Source: a virus (lineage: Duplodnaviria; Heunggongvirae; Uroviricota; Caudoviricetes). From it: a stretch of DNA of 64,000 nucleotides. How positions within the stretch are numbered: position 1 is the first letter of the stretch; each line of letters begins with the position of its first letter. The notes under the pieces are model-generated. The model saw only the letters and a list, made by a program, of their open reading frames with translations, had not been told where the DNA came from and ran no database searches. A program made the translations under genes and the position numbers. Below, one piece after another: positions 21,160 to 63,227 of this stretch. The stretch lies in the IMG/VR virus record IMGVR_UViG_3300034283_001314; one strand, 5' to 3'.

Positions 21160-21525
21160 GGGGATGCTATGGAATTGATTGCAATGTAAATGGTAGTACC
21201 ACACGTGGAGAGAAGTGCTAGTTCTCCTTAAATCTGCACAAAACAATAACTGACGAAATGTCAACTATGACTTACGATGACCTTATGGCCTTCGTAGGTA
21301 TGGATTACGCTGTAGCAGCATAACCAATCCCGTACACATCATGGGACTTTAAATAGAATGTGAAACTAAGTTTACCGAAACTTTAAATCGGTTGGTGGAA
21401 AGTTGGACTAACCATCCGACCTCAATTATTTTGGAAAGTGAATAAGATTAAACTTTATCTAAACGTGTGATATGCTGGTATTATTAGTTCTTTGTAAGAC
21501 ACGAGTTCGAGTCTCGTCATCTCCA
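21160..21525 (+). ncRNA. ssrA: tmRNA; tag peptide (A)DEMSTMTYDDLMAFVGMDYAVAA* at 21252-21323
   Basis: GGGGATG/CATCTCC-A acceptor stem with G3:U, T-arm ACGAGTTCGAGTCTCGT, ATAACT resume context, tag ending YAVAA-stop. Confidence 0.93.
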
Positions 21526-21531
21526 CAATAT

Positions 21532-21603
21532 CGCGGTGTAGAGCAGAGGTAGCTCACTAGGCTCATAACCTAGGGGTCAGTGGTTCGAATCCGCTCACCG
21601 CAA
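21532..21603 (+). tRNA. tRNA-fMet(CAT)
   Basis: cloverleaf, C1:A72 mismatch, CTCATAA loop. Confidence 0.9.
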
Positions 21604-21885
21604 CAAATGTTAGGGTTGAAGCCATCAAATAATAAAACCGATTGAGTGGAGCCAGACCATTAAGGAAAGGCATAAAGCCGGACACCTTAACAAAAAAATC
21701 CCCAAAGAAATTTGGTAGATTGAAAAACTTAATGTATCTTTACTATATAAGATTGAAACTTATAGGTGATGAAAGATACTCGGTATTCAATCTTGGGAGA
21801 AAAAAGTTGTAAAAATATTTGGTAAATTTAATGTTTTAATTTATATTTACATATATATAACAACAAAGAAGTTCTTTAAATTATT

Positions 21886-22765
21886 AAAAATATTCTATAT
21901 AGTAACCTTGTGTTACATAATAGCTACCGGCCGCATATGGTCGTTAAATAAACTACGAAAGTAGGATAAAGTGGGTGTATTAAGTGATACGCCGGCGGCT
22001 CCTTCCCCGTAAGGGAGAATAGCTTAAGTATGCAAGTGGGATATTATTTAGGCTTTGTAAGTGGGGGTAACACTACCATTGAAGAGTTTGAGTAACTAGG
22101 GTATTGTAGATACTTTAGTTGAGGTGGGAACACCAATAAGAATAACCCATAGAATATCAGTAAGAAGTGTAGACTTAATCCCTCTACATAATTGCGGTAT
22201 TCATTATTAGAGTGGTCTTAACATCAAACTATACGAAAGGTAGTAAGATAAGACTGTGTACAGGTGGTGCTGTTACTATCCTTTTATAAATCGTACCAAC
22301 GATTATAAATGAAGATGACTCAAAATAACGCAGTAGGGATATTGCATCGAGTAGTATAGTATTTCGTTGTTCAAAAGATAACGGAGCTGGTGGCAAACCA
22401 CTACTTGAATCATTCTACAAAACTAAAACTCAATTTTTTATTTCGGTATAAAAAACTACAATTAAAAATTAAGCTTAAGTGTTTGCCAGTTATAGACGAA
22501 AGGTGTGTACATAGTTAAGAGTTGTTCTTAGCCACGATACTTCCGCAAGAAGTCTGTGATTCTTTCGAAAAACTTCTAATCCCGCAAGGATTAATTAGGC
22601 TGATAGGTTTAAAGAAGCGTAGTAAAAAGAGAGTAGTTTATAACTCAAAGATTGGTTGACTCAATTAACCCACATTGAATTGGTACTACTCAAAAGGTGG
22701 TGGAAACGGAAGGAACTAATAATCTTTCTAAAGCTGGTTCTCAATATGGAGTATTCTCATCCCTA
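21886..22765 (+). ncRNA. large ornate ncRNA, GOLLD-like (boundaries approximate)
   Basis: ~870 nt without an ORF, raised GC, many GNRA-type hairpins, long-range helix ATATTCTAT(21890)/ATAGAATAT(22149), located among tRNAs. Confidence 0.7.
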
Positions 22766-22912
22766 TTTTATTTTATCATAATGGTTAGAGTTGGTTCGAT
22801 TCCAATAATGATAGCAAAGTAATTTATCGAGGCTTGTATTAACCGGAGCATGACTTGACGTGGCGTATTTTGAAGATTGATTACTTTTTTAATTCGATTA
22901 TAGTTATAACAA

Positions 22913-22981
22913 ATGAAAGCATTAACATTACATACACTTTGTAGCACACCGAATCAGATTTGGGGTGGCAGAGATATGTAA
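22913..22981 (+). CDS. putative attenuator leader peptide MKALTLHTLCSTPNQIWGGRDM
   Basis: 22-codon ORF just upstream of a terminator and tRNA array; stop codon overlaps the antiterminator strand. Confidence 0.65.
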   Translation: MKALTLHTLCSTPNQIWGGRDM

Positions 22982-23012
22982 AGTTAGGCTAGATTTATAT
23001 TAAGAATTTTAG

Positions 23013-23050
23013 AAAACCCTGACTTTAATTAGTTGGGGTTTTTTGTTTTT
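23013..23050 (+). terminator. intrinsic terminator / attenuator directly before the tRNA array
   Basis: AAAACCCTGACT-ttaatt-AGTTGGGGTTTT followed by TTGTTTTT. Confidence 0.75.
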
Positions 23051-23122
23051 GGGATGGTAGCTCAGCGGCAGAGCAGATGACTGTTAATCATCAGGTCGAG
23101 ATATCGTAATTCTCCCTTCCCT
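23051..23122 (+). tRNA. tRNA-Asn(GTT), atypical T-loop
   Basis: GATGA-CTGTTAA-TCATC anticodon arm; T-loop ATCGTAA. Confidence 0.8.
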
Positions 23123-23140
23123 CAATTGTTTATTTGATAT

Positions 23141-23213
23141 GCAGATGTCGTATAATGGCTCATTACTCCTTCCTTCCAAGTAGGAGACGGAGGTTCGATT
23201 CCTCTCATCTGCT
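23141..23213 (+). tRNA. tRNA-Gly(TCC)
   Basis: GCAGATG/CATCTGC-T acceptor; CTTCCAA loop. Confidence 0.88.
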
Positions 23214-23293
23214 CAAACGGTTACCAATCCGGAACACGCCTGGAAGTTTAGTGTATTAGCACACCGGGAAATGGTGATAACAAAATTGGAAAT

Positions 23294-23366
23294 TGTCGGA
23301 TGGTGTAATTGGTCAGCACAATAGATTTTGATTCTATTAGTTTTGGTTCGAGTCCAGGTCCGATAA
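23294..23366 (+). tRNA. tRNA-Gln(TTG)
   Basis: ATAGA-TTTTGAT-TCTAT anticodon arm. Confidence 0.88.
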
Positions 23367-23371
23367 CAAAA

Positions 23372-23445
23372 TGGGAATTAGCGTAGTCCGGTATCGCGCT
23401 AGCTTTGGGAGCTAGAGGCCGTAGGTTCGAATCCTGCATTCCCAA
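23372..23445 (+). tRNA. tRNA-Pro(TGG)
   Basis: CTAGC-TTTGGGA-GCTAG anticodon arm. Confidence 0.9.
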
Positions 23446-23450
23446 CATAT

Positions 23451-23523
23451 AGGAATATAACTCAGCTGGTAGAGTGCTAATCTGATACGTTAGATGTCAC
23501 AAGTTCGAATCTTGTTATTCCTA
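23451..23523 (+). tRNA. tRNA-Ile(GAT)
   Basis: CTAAT-CTGATAC-GTTAG anticodon arm. Confidence 0.88.
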
Positions 23524-23529
23524 CACACA

Positions 23530-23600
23530 TCCGGTTTGGTGCAATGGTAGCATGTAGGTCTCCAAAACCTTTGATTACAGTTCGAGTCTGTAAACCGGTG
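23530..23600 (+). tRNA. tRNA-Trp(CCA)
   Basis: AGGT-CTCCAAA-ACCT anticodon arm; G discriminator. Confidence 0.85.
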
Positions 23601-23605
23601 CAAAT

Positions 23606-23678
23606 AGTTTCATAGTGAAATGGATTATCACACAACACTACGAATGTTGGATTGTGGGTTCGAATCCTACTGAAACTA
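23606..23678 (+). tRNA. tRNA-Arg(ACG)
   Basis: CAACA-CTACGAA-TGTTG anticodon arm. Confidence 0.88.
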
Positions 23679-23684
23679 CAATAA

Positions 23685-23755
23685 GGTGAGTTGTCCGAGT
23701 GGCTAGGGGGAGGTCTGCAAAACCTCTTACATTGGTTCGAATCCAATACACACCT
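23685..23755 (+). tRNA. tRNA-Cys(GCA)
   Basis: GAGGT-CTGCAAA-ACCTC anticodon arm; U discriminator. Confidence 0.88.
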
Positions 23756-23762
23756 CGAAAAT

Positions 23763-23834
23763 GTTGAGCGTAGCCTAATGGTAGGGCAAAAGTTTGTGGC
23801 ACTTTGTGTGTGGGTTCGATTCCCATCGTTCAAC
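23763..23834 (+). tRNA. tRNA-His(GTG)
   Basis: G-1:C73; AAAGT-TTGTGGC-ACTTT anticodon arm. Confidence 0.88.
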
Positions 23835-23839
23835 CAATC

Positions 23840-23924
23840 GGAAAGATGGGTGAGGGATTTAAACCAGCAGTTTACTAAACTGCCGACTGTTAAAGGTCCG
23901 TGAGTTCGAATCTCACTCTTTCCG
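23840..23924 (+). tRNA. tRNA-Ser(ACT), rare A34 anticodon
   Basis: GCAGT-TTACTAA-ACTGC anticodon arm, long variable arm, G73. Confidence 0.85.
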
Positions 23925-23931
23925 CATAAAT

Positions 23932-24006
23932 ACCGGTATGGCGGAATTGGCATACGCAGTGGTCTTAGAAGCCATACAATTATAGGTTCGAATCCTATTA
24001 CCGGTA
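23932..24006 (+). tRNA. tRNA-Leu(TAG), short variable arm
   Basis: GTGGT-CTTAGAA-GCCAT anticodon arm; A73. Confidence 0.87.
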
Positions 24007-24064
24007 CAAAATGTACTTTTTTTCGATTTTATCAAAAGTCCCAAAATTTTTTTGAGGGAAATTT

Positions 24065-24589: not shown

Positions 24590-24642
24590 CGTGGGTTTCG
24601 GTGATGAAGCCATAAAGAGAGATAGATGTTTCTCATTCACTA

Positions 24643-24678
24643 AAATAGGTAGGTGATTCCACACCTGCTTATTTTTTT
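24643..24678 (+). terminator. intrinsic terminator
   Basis: AATAGGTAGGTG-attcca-CACCTGCTTATT followed by a T run. Confidence 0.65.
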
Positions 24679-26360: not shown

Positions 26361-26927
26361 ATGAGTATGAGAATTAAATTATTTGTTGCATTACCAAGTG
26401 AATTTCCAAAAGAAAAAGCACCTTTAGGAGTAGATGTTATTTATACCGGAGTTGGTAAAATAAATGCAGCAATTAAAGCAACTGAAATACTTAAGGAATT
26501 ATCACCATCAGAAACCATAGTTATTAATTATGGAAGTGCAGGTGGGCATATTAGTATGATAAATAATTTGTTCAAATGTAAAAATTTTGTACAAAGAGAT
26601 ATGGATGCCAGACCATTTGCTAAAAAAACAATTACTCCATTTGATGAAGTTGTTTGGAATAAATTACATTTAGTAAATGATTCTATTGATTTTAATGGAT
26701 TAGGATACCATACATGTCATACACAAGATCGGTTTGAACAATCACCGAATAGAATTTCCGATATGGAAGCATATTCAATAGCAAAAGTATGTAAAATTTA
26801 CGGATTTGATTTTACAGCATATAAATTTATATCAGATGATGGTAATCATGAGGATTGGACAAAAAATCACAATAAAGGAATTGAACTATTTTTACAACAA
26901 TTAAAAGATGATTTTAAAATATCGTGA
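26361..26927 (+). CDS. mtnN: 5'-methylthioadenosine/S-adenosylhomocysteine nucleosidase
   Basis: TGVGKINAA, NYGSAG, DMEAYSIA, KFISD. Confidence 0.8.
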   Translation: MSMRIKLFVALPSEFPKEKAPLGVDVIYTGVGKINAAIKATEILKELSPSETIVINYGSAGGHISMINNLFKCKNFVQRDMDARPFAKKTITPFDEVVWNKLHLVNDSIDFNGLGYHTCHTQDRFEQSPNRISDMEAYSIAKVCKIYGFDFTAYKFISDDGNHEDWTKNHNKGIELFLQQLKDDFKIS

Positions 26928-27454
26928 TAAAATTAAAAAAATTATTAAAAGAGATAGAAAGTGGCCCTTATGAATATGGGTGTGTAATGTTATATTTTGA
27001 TTTTGAAGAAACTTTTATAACAAAAGCAATATCCGATTCTGATTTATATGATGATGGTAGTGGTAAGTATGGAAAAGAAACTGAACCACATGTAACCCTA
27101 TTGTATGGGTTACATTCTAATGTCACTCCACAAATTATTCAACAAATCTTAGATACAATTCATTTTGGAGATATAACTTTAAATAATATTTCTTATTTCA
27201 CTAATGCAGATTATGATGTATTAAAGATGGATGCAAGTGGTGACGGGTTAGAAAAAGCTCACGCAATTTTAAGTAAATTACCAAACTCAAATGAGTATGA
27301 TGAATACTATCCACATATGACAATTGCATATTTACAAAAAAATAAGTGGCAAAAATATATTCCAAAATTACAAAGTTTCACAACAACGGTAACACCACTA
27401 TTCGCAATTTATTCAGTTCCGAGTGGTAAAAAATACAAATTAAAGATAAAATAA
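26924..27454 (+). CDS. 2H phosphoesterase, T4 gp57B/Acb1-like
   Basis: two HxT motifs: PHVTLLYGL and YYPHMTIAY. Confidence 0.7.
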   Translation: MIKLKKLLKEIESGPYEYGCVMLYFDFEETFITKAISDSDLYDDGSGKYGKETEPHVTLLYGLHSNVTPQIIQQILDTIHFGDITLNNISYFTNADYDVLKMDASGDGLEKAHAILSKLPNSNEYDEYYPHMTIAYLQKNKWQKYIPKLQSFTTTVTPLFAIYSVPSGKKYKLKIK

Positions 27455-27492: not shown

Positions 27493-30018
27493 ATGTATCA
27501 AAACGTCTATTTACAAAAAGGAAAAGATTTAGTTCATCTTTGGGATGATAAATTAGGTTATCAAACATTCCCTTACAAAACATTTAATTACGCCTACGCA
27601 CCGGCAGAAAGAGGTCAATCAACTGCATTAGATGGTACGAAAGTAACTAAAATCTATGAGTTTGAAAAGGATGATCCGGCATATTACGAAACGGATGTAC
27701 CAGAAACAACACGTATCTTAGTAGATTTATATTCAGAAAGTGATTTACCATCGGAAGGACATGTGGTGATGACATTTGATATTGAGGTAGAAATGGAAAC
27801 AGGTCTGCCTGATACCGATAAAGCTGAGAATGAGATTACGGCAATAGCAATGCACGATGGGGCAACGGATACTTACTACGCATTGATTTTAGATAAAGGT
27901 GGTAAGTTACAATCAACAATCAAAAAAGATAATAGAATTATTAAAGCATTCAAAACCGAAAGGGAAATGTTGAATGCCTTCTTAACTATTTACGAATACA
28001 TACATCCAACAATATTAACAGGTTGGAATGTAGATGCATTTGATATTCCGTACTTATTCAATCGTTTGGCAAATGTATTGGGTAAGCAAAACGCATATAG
28101 ATTATCACCGATTAGAGATGGTTTCTATTCACCTTACCGAAAGAAGTGGAGTTTTGCAGGTGTATCTATTTTGGATTACATTACATTATATAAAAAGTTT
28201 ACTTATTCATTAATGCCTTCATACGCATTGAACTATATTGCAAAGCAGGAATTGAGTAGAACAAAATTAGAATACGAAGGAAGTTTGGATGATTTATTCA
28301 GAGATGATATTGAGAAGTTTATTGAGTACAATATTATTGACGTTGAGTTAGTTGTTGAGTTTGATAAAAAATTACAATACATTGACTTGTGTCGAGGTAT
28401 TTGTCACGCCGGACATGTACCATATGAGGATTATTGTTTCTCATCAAAATATTTAGAGGGAGCATGTTTGAACTACTTAAAGAAAAGAAATTTAGTAGCA
28501 CCGAACAAACCAGCAGATAGAAGGGAGCAAATGGAGGCTTTGAAGGAAAGTGGTGAGCAGGGTTTCATTGGAGCATATGTAAAAGATCCAATACCAGGTA
28601 AATACGATTGGTTATATGATTTGGATTTAACATCACTATATCCATCAATCATTATGAGTTTGAATATCAGTCCTGAAACAAAGGTGGGTAAGATTGCAAA
28701 CTTTGATGCAGAGGCATTTGTTAAGGGTGATTATAGAGTATGGAATATAGAACATACAGCTCTTAACTATACTACCGAAGAATTGAGAAAAGAATTGAAT
28801 GAGGAGAATTTATCTATATCATCTAATGGGGTATTGTACACACAAGAGAAAGTAGGATTGATTGCAGATATCCTAAATGAGTGGTTCTCTCAACGTGTGG
28901 AGTTTCGTAAGTTAGAGAAAAAATATGGTAAAGAAGGTGATAAAGCAAAGCACGCATTCTACGCAAAAAGACAGTTAGTACAAAAAATCTTATTGAACTC
29001 TTTATATGGAGTATTAGGATTACCTGCATTCCGTTTTTATGATGTGGATAATGCAGCAGCCGTAACTACAACAGGTCAGACGGTAATTAAGAATACAGCA
29101 AAGATGGTAAACATTAAGTACAATAAGGAGTTGAGTACGAATGAAGATTACAACATTTACATTGATACGGATTCAGTATTCTTTTCAGCATTACCATTAG
29201 TTAAACATAGGTTTCCAAATTGGGCAGAGTTTGATGATGCAGCAATGACAGAAAAGATTGATGAGATAGCAGGTGAAGTACAAGATTTCTTAAATAAGTT
29301 CTATGATATGATGTCGGATAAGTTCTTTAACATTAAGAAACACAGATTTGAAATTAAGAAAGAGTATATCAGTAAGGCAGGTATTTGGATTGCAAAGAAA
29401 CGATATGCACAATGGATAGTTGCAGCGAATGGTTTACCGATGGATAAATTGGATGTAAAAGGTTTAGATGTAGTTCGTTCATCATTCCCCAAAGCATTTC
29501 AAGATTTTATGGCTAGAATGTTAAGAGATATTCTACAAGGTAAATCGAATGATGCAGTAGATACTGAATTAAGAGATTTCAAATTATCATTAGCGGGATT
29601 AGATGTGGCACTTATTGCAAAAGGTGGAGCAGTAAAAGAGATTAGTAAGTATGATAAAGGGGGTAAGAATAAGATATTAGGAGATTTTGAGAAAGGAACG
29701 CCTGCACACATTAAAGCAGGTATAACTTACAATAGATTACTTAAACACTTTAATTGCCCTTTCAAATATGAACCAATGAAAAATGGTGATAAGATTAAGT
29801 GGGTATATCTAAAACAAAATCCATTGAGTTTAGAAACAGCGGCATTCAAAGGTTATCAAGACCCTCCTGAAATAATGGAATTTATCCAAAAGTATATTGA
29901 TGTGGATAAGATATTTGAAGCAGAATTAGAAAACAAAATGGATGATTTCTATAATGCATTAGGTTGGGAAAAATCATCATTCAGTTCAAAGAAATTAGAG
30001 GAATTTTTCTCCTTTTAA
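27493..30018 (+). CDS. polB: family B DNA polymerase (T4 gp43-like)
   Basis: FDIE exonuclease I motif, DLTSLYPSII, KILLNSLYG, YIDTDS, KKRY. Confidence 0.95.
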   Translation: MYQNVYLQKGKDLVHLWDDKLGYQTFPYKTFNYAYAPAERGQSTALDGTKVTKIYEFEKDDPAYYETDVPETTRILVDLYSESDLPSEGHVVMTFDIEVEMETGLPDTDKAENEITAIAMHDGATDTYYALILDKGGKLQSTIKKDNRIIKAFKTEREMLNAFLTIYEYIHPTILTGWNVDAFDIPYLFNRLANVLGKQNAYRLSPIRDGFYSPYRKKWSFAGVSILDYITLYKKFTYSLMPSYALNYIAKQELSRTKLEYEGSLDDLFRDDIEKFIEYNIIDVELVVEFDKKLQYIDLCRGICHAGHVPYEDYCFSSKYLEGACLNYLKKRNLVAPNKPADRREQMEALKESGEQGFIGAYVKDPIPGKYDWLYDLDLTSLYPSIIMSLNISPETKVGKIANFDAEAFVKGDYRVWNIEHTALNYTTEELRKELNEENLSISSNGVLYTQEKVGLIADILNEWFSQRVEFRKLEKKYGKEGDKAKHAFYAKRQLVQKILLNSLYGVLGLPAFRFYDVDNAAAVTTTGQTVIKNTAKMVNIKYNKELSTNEDYNIYIDTDSVFFSALPLVKHRFPNWAEFDDAAMTEKIDEIAGEVQDFLNKFYDMMSDKFFNIKKHRFEIKKEYISKAGIWIAKKRYAQWIVAANGLPMDKLDVKGLDVVRSSFPKAFQDFMARMLRDILQGKSNDAVDTELRDFKLSLAGLDVALIAKGGAVKEISKYDKGGKNKILGDFEKGTPAHIKAGITYNRLLKHFNCPFKYEPMKNGDKIKWVYLKQNPLSLETAAFKGYQDPPEIMEFIQKYIDVDKIFEAELENKMDDFYNALGWEKSSFSSKKLEEFFSF

Positions 30019-62739: not shown

Positions 62740-63117
62740 ATGGGACAACAGCATGTAACACTAAACATCGGAGATGATGGATTAGTAAAATCGGTAGGAC
62801 ATGATATGGGTGGTTCTTACGAAATAGAAACACCTAAATATGAACAATTAGAAATCAATTTTCCAAAAGTAGATGGACAGGGTGAATCTATTTATGAAAC
62901 ATGTATTCAATGTGGTAAAGAAACTACTACATTAAAAAGTACACATATAGATTTTAGAATAGGTTATGTAGAAGGTGCAGGACAATTATGTTGGCATTGT
63001 TATACAGGTAAATCTAGGAGTCTTATCACAATAGATGAGAGAACTATCATTGATACACCTAACGATGCAGAATTGGGTGCAAAGGTACGCAGACAGTACT
63101 TTGAAAATAAGTCCTAA
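62740..63117 (+). CDS. zinc-finger hypothetical protein
   Basis: CIQC...YVEGAGQLCWHC; TPNDAELGAKVR. Confidence 0.55.
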   Translation: MGQQHVTLNIGDDGLVKSVGHDMGGSYEIETPKYEQLEINFPKVDGQGESIYETCIQCGKETTTLKSTHIDFRIGYVEGAGQLCWHCYTGKSRSLITIDERTIIDTPNDAELGAKVRRQYFENKS

Positions 63118-63227
63118 AATATTTGGAAAACTGAAAAATTGTCAGTATCTTTATGGTATAAATGGTTCGTATATATTATAGTTATTTACGAATTCGGTTA
63201 CATATTTTTTAAATTAAAAGAAAGTTT

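Follow-up and report, generated by a model that had tools for sequence, protein, structure and literature searches.

The 64,000-nucleotide stretch of IMG/VR virus record IMGVR_UViG_3300034283_001314 (Caudoviricetes; the whole stretch is called the window here) carries, in front of its main tRNA array, a 22-codon leader open reading frame (ORF) followed by an intrinsic terminator. Judging from the sequences of this cassette and of its relatives, the two probably form a ribosome-mediated (leader-peptide) transcription attenuator that gates the array and senses slow decoding of many codons. The region is part of an AT-rich (about 30% G+C) phage-like genome with every long ORF on the plus strand. 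Leader-peptide attenuation is known for amino-acid and related operons, where it uses runs of one or few codons; examples are trpL, hisL, pheL and leuL, and the multivalent thrL and ilvL of enterobacteria. The initial annotation of this DNA, made without database searches, had proposed a translated multi-amino-acid leader that chooses between antiterminator and terminator, and had named as checks the conservation of the ORF frame and of the RNA switch in homologues, a shuffled-peptide null and folding with a ribosome mask. The comparative tests described below support this core reading at the level of sequence.

Reading of the sequence, a terminator scan and ARAGORN recovered the ORF and the terminator abutting the tRNA block where they had been claimed. 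The last base of the T tract (23050) directly precedes tRNA-Asn (start 23051), which leaves no space for a promoter behind the terminator, and transcription of the array must therefore cross it. At the 3' end of the ORF, AAAGTTAGG (22980-22988) is complementary to CCTGACTTT (23018-23026) over 9 base pairs (bp) with one G-U, as the initial annotation had stated; because the partner is the 5' arm of the terminator, antiterminator and terminator exclude each other. The free RNA is far more stable than shuffled sequences (z = -5.0), and the ORF folds into one long hairpin in which 22918-22934 pairs with 22975-22990. This pairing, absent from the initial annotation, is in the predicted folds the anti-antiterminator of a classical attenuator, that is, a third alternative structure. 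The elements are numbered below as segments 1 to 4 (Table 1).

Table 1. Features of the leader cassette and the tRNA block behind it (window coordinates).
Feature	Position	Strand	Basis and remarks
Upstream conserved block, unstructured	22828..22912	+	identity in relatives, absence of a stable fold
Leader ORF, 22 codons + TAA	22913..22981	+	ATG at 22913, stop 22979-22981; shortened form of a 37-54-codon family
Segment 1, anti-antiterminator (predicted)	22918..22934	+	minimum-free-energy and centroid folds; homologous segment covaries with segment 2
Inner hairpin in ORF	22937..22973 (apical stem 22949-22963)	+	folds; homologue with 5 covarying pairs
Segment 2, antiterminator (predicted)	22975..22990 (core 22980-22988)	+	overlaps stop codon; 9 bp with 23018-23026
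Segment 3, terminator 5' arm, target of the antiterminator	23013..23026	+	
Intrinsic terminator	stem 23013-23024 / 23031-23042, loop 23025-23030, T tract to 23050	+	sequence reading and terminator scan
Segment 4, terminator 3' arm (23031-23042) and T tract	23031..23050	+	100% identical in the window's clade
tRNA block 1	23051..24007	+	Asn, Gly, Gln, Pro, Ile, Trp, Arg(ACG), Cys, His, Ser(ACT), Leu(TAG); ARAGORN and Rfam

Relatives of the cassette were gathered by several routes. The neighbouring AAA ATPase gene led to 23 IMG/VR loci (52-83% protein identity). Searches with a 7-sequence peptide alignment brought extra viral and metagenomic loci, a 15-sequence alignment being too variable for the metagenome scan, and a scan with a degenerate DNA pattern returned mostly chance matches and a single new homologue, L043 (loci are cited by L numbers). 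The resulting set holds 27 DNA variants and 23 peptides (22-53 residues), all of them distinct. A profile search of a large protein collection produced 135 clusters, all unnamed and none with a Pfam family, and the database peptide set comprises 103 distinct peptides of 37-54 residues. Across the family the leader ranges from 22 to 54 codons, and the sources of the cassette-bearing relatives are lake viromes and metagenomes. All AAA-derived loci that are long enough carry a tmRNA, GOLLD and tRNA arrays of varying content, and the leader ORF is found in each. The layout recurs in the 27 variants: the ORF is followed by a spacer of 61-78 nucleotides (nt) with an intrinsic terminator, and the first tRNA begins within about 0-30 nt. 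The exception is L057, where an insertion behind the terminator (1155-1627, about 400 nt including an ORF, before tRNA-Asn) makes it the sole variant with a displaced first tRNA; the insert may be a mobile gene. Three lineages fetched later matched the predicted architecture, including the antiterminator pairing. Searching cultured phages at the nucleotide level gave tRNA-level matches only, and tblastn of the cultured-phage collection with one long leader gave no match. The nearest cultured relative by PolB, Microcystis phage Mel-JY01 (51% amino-acid identity), retains synteny but has one tRNA at the site and no array.

The switch is conserved in these relatives with compensatory changes. In every variant a stretch of 6-11 nt can pair with the core of the terminator 5' arm, a degree of complementarity usually rarer than 1% in shuffled ORFs; the antiterminator sequence is in effect a copy of the terminator 3' arm placed inside the ORF. 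In the window's clade the complementary segment overlaps the stop codon, and in the long forms it lies 18-38 nt 5' of it. When 17 long forms were aligned, 99.2% of the cells of the 2:3 helix were paired in register versus 19-69% when the strands were slid; this alignment leaves out L034, L066, L058, L063, L013 and the window's clade, because a C-run one base shorter shifts their register. One G-C pair of the 2:3 helix has become A-U in L036, L043 and L003, the terminator pair at the same position being merely U-G, and in L013, L070 and L073 (the last two fetched later) C replaces U opposite a G of the 5' arm. Segment 1 (codons 3-6) is complementary to segment 2 and changes along with it. The inner hairpin, which in long forms spans the Pro13 to Trp19 codons, also contains covarying pairs, and the folds make it a candidate RNA polymerase pause hairpin. 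Taken by its pairing and covariation, the cassette has the make-up of a four-segment classical attenuator. In L033 (6001-6195) the antiterminator core has A for G, with a mismatch to the 5' arm and better pairing to segment 1; this may be a 'super-attenuated' allele.

A separate micropeptide gene followed by an ordinary insulating terminator (for the ORF or for GOLLD), with the tRNAs expressed by constitutive leak-through, would account for the six invariant positions of the peptide, and a terminator close before a tRNA-Met gene also occurs at 24642-24675 without a leader ORF. Against this explanation stand the in-ORF copy of the terminator 3' arm, conserved with the compensatory changes just described, and peptide positions that are mostly free to vary while the composition is kept. 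In addition, the cassette stays with the array independently of GOLLD: it lies directly behind GOLLD in L015 and L021, behind a protein gene in L016, and behind tRNA-Gly in L019, L029, L031 and L032, and it does not adjoin GOLLD in L016, L019 and L029. We consider the micropeptide explanation the least probable of those weighed here.

Several features point to translation of the leader ORF. Its ATG is invariant across variants, and its frame contains no stop codon in any variant versus 2-7 stops in the other two frames. The antiterminator core stands at nt 99, 105, 123, 135 or 138 from the ATG, all multiples of three, which means that insertions and deletions (indels) between the two anchors have preserved the frame; conservation of the frame thus holds across diverged relatives. 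The invariant residues Leu6, Thr8 and Gly21 are encoded by several synonymous codons. The leader has no Shine-Dalgarno (SD) site, which is typical here, since just 6 of the 48 long ORFs of the window have an SD-like motif; together with the A-rich sequence 5' of start codons, this suggests that the host uses SD-independent initiation.

It would also be conceivable that the leader is an untranslated structured RNA (a riboswitch, a tRNA-binding element or a protein-dependent attenuator) in which the ORF is incidental. The heavy structure in the ORF (the z of -5.0 given above) and its covarying helices would suit such an element, as would the missing SD sequence and the lack of clear codon periodicity. 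Against it, however, stand a frame that is open in every variant, an invariant ATG and indels between two fixed anchors that are always multiples of three, and RNA structure alone cannot account for the all-20 composition described below; SD sites are generally unused by this phage, and no Rfam family at threshold and no T-box match was found. We therefore regard an untranslated leader as very unlikely.

The conserved trait of the leader peptide is the completeness of its amino-acid set. All 20 amino acids occur in 16 of the 19 long forms on loci, and the other three hold 19. In the database set 90 of 103 peptides are complete and 13 hold 19, the complete ones including peptides of only 37 and 39 residues. 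Given the phage's own amino-acid usage, a random peptide would be complete with a probability of 0.004 at 40 residues, 0.007-0.008 at 43, 0.013-0.016 at 47 and 0.03 at 53, and windows of real proteins gave the same figures. Most peptide positions vary freely while the composition stays held: the single Cys is at position 10, 17 or 25 depending on the lineage, and Tyr, Arg, Glu and Asp shift too. A drift null, in which an all-20 ancestor undergoes random replacement at the observed divergence, leaves 6-15% of lineages complete, versus 10 of 11 observed. Moreover, 15 of 16 complete leaders have all 20 residues 5' of the antiterminator, where the probability of all 20 within 32-34 independently and identically distributed residues is 2.4e-4 to 6.5e-4. 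Leader composition is thus far from that of shuffled or random peptides, and the comparisons with these sequence-based nulls show that it is under selection. One further all-20 ORF in the window, of 48 codons at 63035-63181, was rejected as chance background: a longer gene, read in a different frame, overlaps it with its end, and about 1 in 59 short ORFs is expected to be complete.

In the window the leader has 16 kinds of residue in 22 codons (P = 0.023), and, as the initial annotation had noticed, it covers all 11 amino acids of block 1, whose tRNAs ARAGORN confirmed (P = 1.5e-4 for 21 random residues of phage composition, a post hoc figure). The match of the window residues to the 11 tRNAs stands, but the view of the leader as a mirror of those tRNAs does not extend to the family, whose design is all 20: the window leader is a truncated derivative of the all-20 family, and its clade has a smaller set of tRNAs. 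In the part of their genomes that was fetched, phages with complete leaders encode tRNAs for 18-20 amino acids, and the window's clade has tRNAs for 15. Behind block 1 a 207-nt gap is followed by tRNAs Glu, Thr, Asp and Arg(TCT), and further tRNAs extend up to 25314; the Thr and Asp tRNAs of this second block had been reported correctly. ARAGORN found no Phe, Tyr, Val, Lys or Ala tRNA in the window. The leader lacks E, F, V and Y, and F, V and Y are absent from leader and tRNAs alike, as also noted before (Fisher P = 0.03). In L001 and L002 the array still begins with a tRNA-Tyr, and a two-base change in the leader has replaced Gly by Tyr. No leader-plus-terminator cassette precedes the other tRNA blocks, in the window or in relatives; it stands before the first block only.

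The cassette is the best-conserved stretch of the region in the window's clade. When the window was compared with L001, L009 and L014, the ORF was 97-100% identical, the spacer and terminator 100% and the 150 nt upstream 95-97%, against 78-85% for the AAA gene, 81-84% for the tmRNA, 84-91% for GOLLD, 78-89% for the tRNA block and 87% for polB. In relatives with 73-87% identity in the flanking genes, the upstream conserved block (Table 1) is itself 95-97% identical. Folding gave it no stable structure (z = +1.6), its 22-nt core occurs once in the window, and it contains a sigma-70-like pair, TTGATT-16-TATAGT, at 22877-22904. The block is probably a promoter or operator.

In the mechanism we propose, transcription would begin somewhere 5' of 22913 and would have to cross the terminator (23013-23050) to reach the tRNAs. 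Without a ribosome, helices 1:2 and 3:4 would form and transcription would stop. During fast translation, a ribosome at the stop codon would cover segment 2 (22975-22990), allowing 3:4 to form, with the same result. During slow translation, a ribosome stalled within roughly the first 19 codons would cover segment 1 and free segment 2, which would then pair with the emerging segment 3, blocking the terminator and letting the tRNA genes be transcribed. Because many amino acids are represented in the leader by one or two codons (all 20 of them upstream of segment 2 in long forms), a shortage of any charged tRNA would be sensed; residues R20, D21 and M22 of the window leader are too near the antiterminator for sensing. 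The outcome would be homeostatic control over the phage's own tRNA supply, the phage probably making its own tRNAs whenever any codon is decoded slowly. The sequences show the layout of the cassette, how well it is conserved, its covariation and the selection acting on leader composition; we infer that the ORF is translated, that ribosome and polymerase are kinetically coupled, which way the response runs and what triggers it physiologically.

Folding of nascent RNA that ends before segment 4 is consistent with this scheme. When the 5' part of the ORF was masked, segment 2 paired with segment 3 in 13 of 13 lineages, and in the unmasked RNA of the window segment 2 remained on segment 1. The masked fold proposed in the initial annotation thus gave the expected result on nascent RNA, in which the 5' mask made segment 2 leave segment 1 and pair with the terminator arm. 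The nascent folding replaced an equilibrium fold with a per-codon ribosome mask, which was dropped as uninformative because, as in trp, a terminator whose 3' arm is present is the more stable fold.

Several observations weigh against the proposed attenuator. At equilibrium the complete terminator wins, whichever codon carries the ribosome mask, so that the model needs kinetic control. The stop codon of long forms lies 18-38 nt past segment 2, so that a terminating ribosome would mask this segment less directly than it would in the window. The three codon positions of the leader have 16, 16 and 19 variable columns, which is no clear periodicity of substitutions, and it is therefore the open frame, the indels and the composition that carry the coding case; weak periodicity is expected if most residues can change freely. 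Matching of codons to anticodons is weak, with 505 cognate leader codons observed versus 460 expected from synonymous usage, of 620; the initial annotation had itself cautioned that the match was imperfect. The window leader contains Lys and Ala, for which it has no tRNA, yet lacks Glu, and the leader of L013 lacks Arg despite two tRNA-Arg genes. In L013 the link of leader to array has P = 0.5, and for this locus the proposed co-variation fitted poorly. Finally, unlike classical attenuators with their runs of regulatory codons, the leader has each amino acid just once or twice; neither tandem nor clustered codons of this kind were found.

Alternatively, the same RNA switch could read general translation status, such as ribosome availability, initiation rate or transcription-translation coupling, and not the supply of individual charged tRNAs. 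The tRNAs would then be switched on when host translation collapses, for example, or on only during active translation. One or two codons for each amino acid are perhaps too few for specific sensing, and the ribosome-free nascent RNA of long forms prefers the antiterminator once segment 3 has been made, so that absence of translation could also yield readthrough. A pure on/off sensor of translation, however, gives no reason for keeping all 20 amino acids, for re-creating lost ones elsewhere in the peptide or for placing them before segment 2. We hold sensing of general status to be possible but doubtful, and prefer the sensing of slow decoding at many codons.

Compared with classical attenuators, the cassette has the same parts: a short leader ORF, conserved in the relatives; segments with alternative 1:2, 2:3 and 3:4 pairings, of which 1:2 pairing is present and the 2:3 helix covaries; and an intrinsic terminator, found in every relative, just before the regulated genes. 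In the window form the stop codon lies within segment 2, as in trp. The proposed logic would also be alike, with termination when the ribosome is absent or fast and readthrough when it is stalled. The differences are that tRNA genes of a phage genome are regulated here, not biosynthetic enzymes, and that the leader holds many amino acids once or twice (20 in long forms, 16 in the window) and no codon run. The leader also shows no sequence similarity to the classical ones. An Rfam scan of it returned no family at threshold; the best sub-threshold matches were to attenuator-type leaders, for example Thr_leader (RF00506; 20.1 bits versus a threshold of 55), and the rnk leader scored 21 versus 55 and trpB 20.7 versus 59.

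T-box riboswitches bind one uncharged tRNA directly, are untranslated and control synthetase and amino-acid genes. The cassette resembles them as a terminator/antiterminator leader that would report the state of the tRNA pool, but sensing here would run through the ribosome and cover all tRNAs. For T-boxes, which are marked by a Stem I with a specifier loop and by the T-box sequence in the antiterminator, there was no hit at the gathering threshold or at E <= 10.

For the family as a whole we lean, with less assurance than for the attenuator itself, towards a wider reading: that these lake phages carry a 37-54-codon 'pangram' leader, in which selection maintains all 20 amino acids ahead of an antiterminator and which switches on a near-complete tRNA set when any codon becomes slow. 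Starvation, decay of host tRNAs after shut-off and tRNA-cleaving defence nucleases would be possible causes of slow decoding; a role in counter-defence is speculation. It would be the first case of leader-peptide attenuation acting on tRNA genes, and also the first translational sensor for all amino acids; full-text searches of the literature turned up no account of leader peptides that control phage tRNA genes. Textbook attenuation logic would here apparently govern tRNA genes, through a leader that draws on the entire amino-acid alphabet. If this is true, it explains how large phages dose their own tRNAs, ties tRNA arrays to the decoding state of the host, possibly including tRNA-targeting defences, and provides a compact natural device for sensing global decoding speed, which synthetic biology could reuse.

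The cassette lies in a neighbourhood of RNA genes, in the order tmRNA (21160-21528), tRNA-Met (21532-21604), GOLLD (22347-22763), leader cassette and tRNA array (Rfam, ARAGORN). The tmRNA scored 85.8 bits in Rfam, with an ARAGORN tag of 23 residues, and the GOLLD 3' domain 276.8 bits; the order is retained in relatives. GOLLD is a giant phage RNA of unknown function that is often found near tRNA islands (bioRxiv 10.1101/2024.12.08.627333). Its position downstream of tRNA-Met agrees with the description of the cryo-EM specimen. GOLLD (RF02032) shares the neighbourhood of the cassette and stands directly upstream of it, but is untranslated, and its match ends at 22763, ahead of the leader ORF. 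Just 3' of the GOLLD match, at 22773-22814, we noticed a tRNA-like minihelix in which a 7-bp stem closes a T-arm-like hairpin with the loop motif GGTTCGATTCC. This element is conserved in L013 and the window's clade and could mark a site of GOLLD 3'-end processing.

Within the array, the Ser tRNA at 23840-23925 has the unusual anticodon ACT, common to L001, L003, L006, L009, L013 and L031; other relatives have a GCT anticodon at this place of the array. The second strong terminator, mentioned above (24642-24675), ends 6 nt 5' of tRNA-Met (24682) and has only mini-ORFs of 3 and 5 codons upstream. Further downstream, the ORF at 26924-27454, just upstream of the family B DNA polymerase gene (27493-30018), matches the 2'-5' RNA ligase / 2H phosphoesterase family (E = 4.9e-9) and, below the Pfam cut-off, anti-CBASS Acb1.

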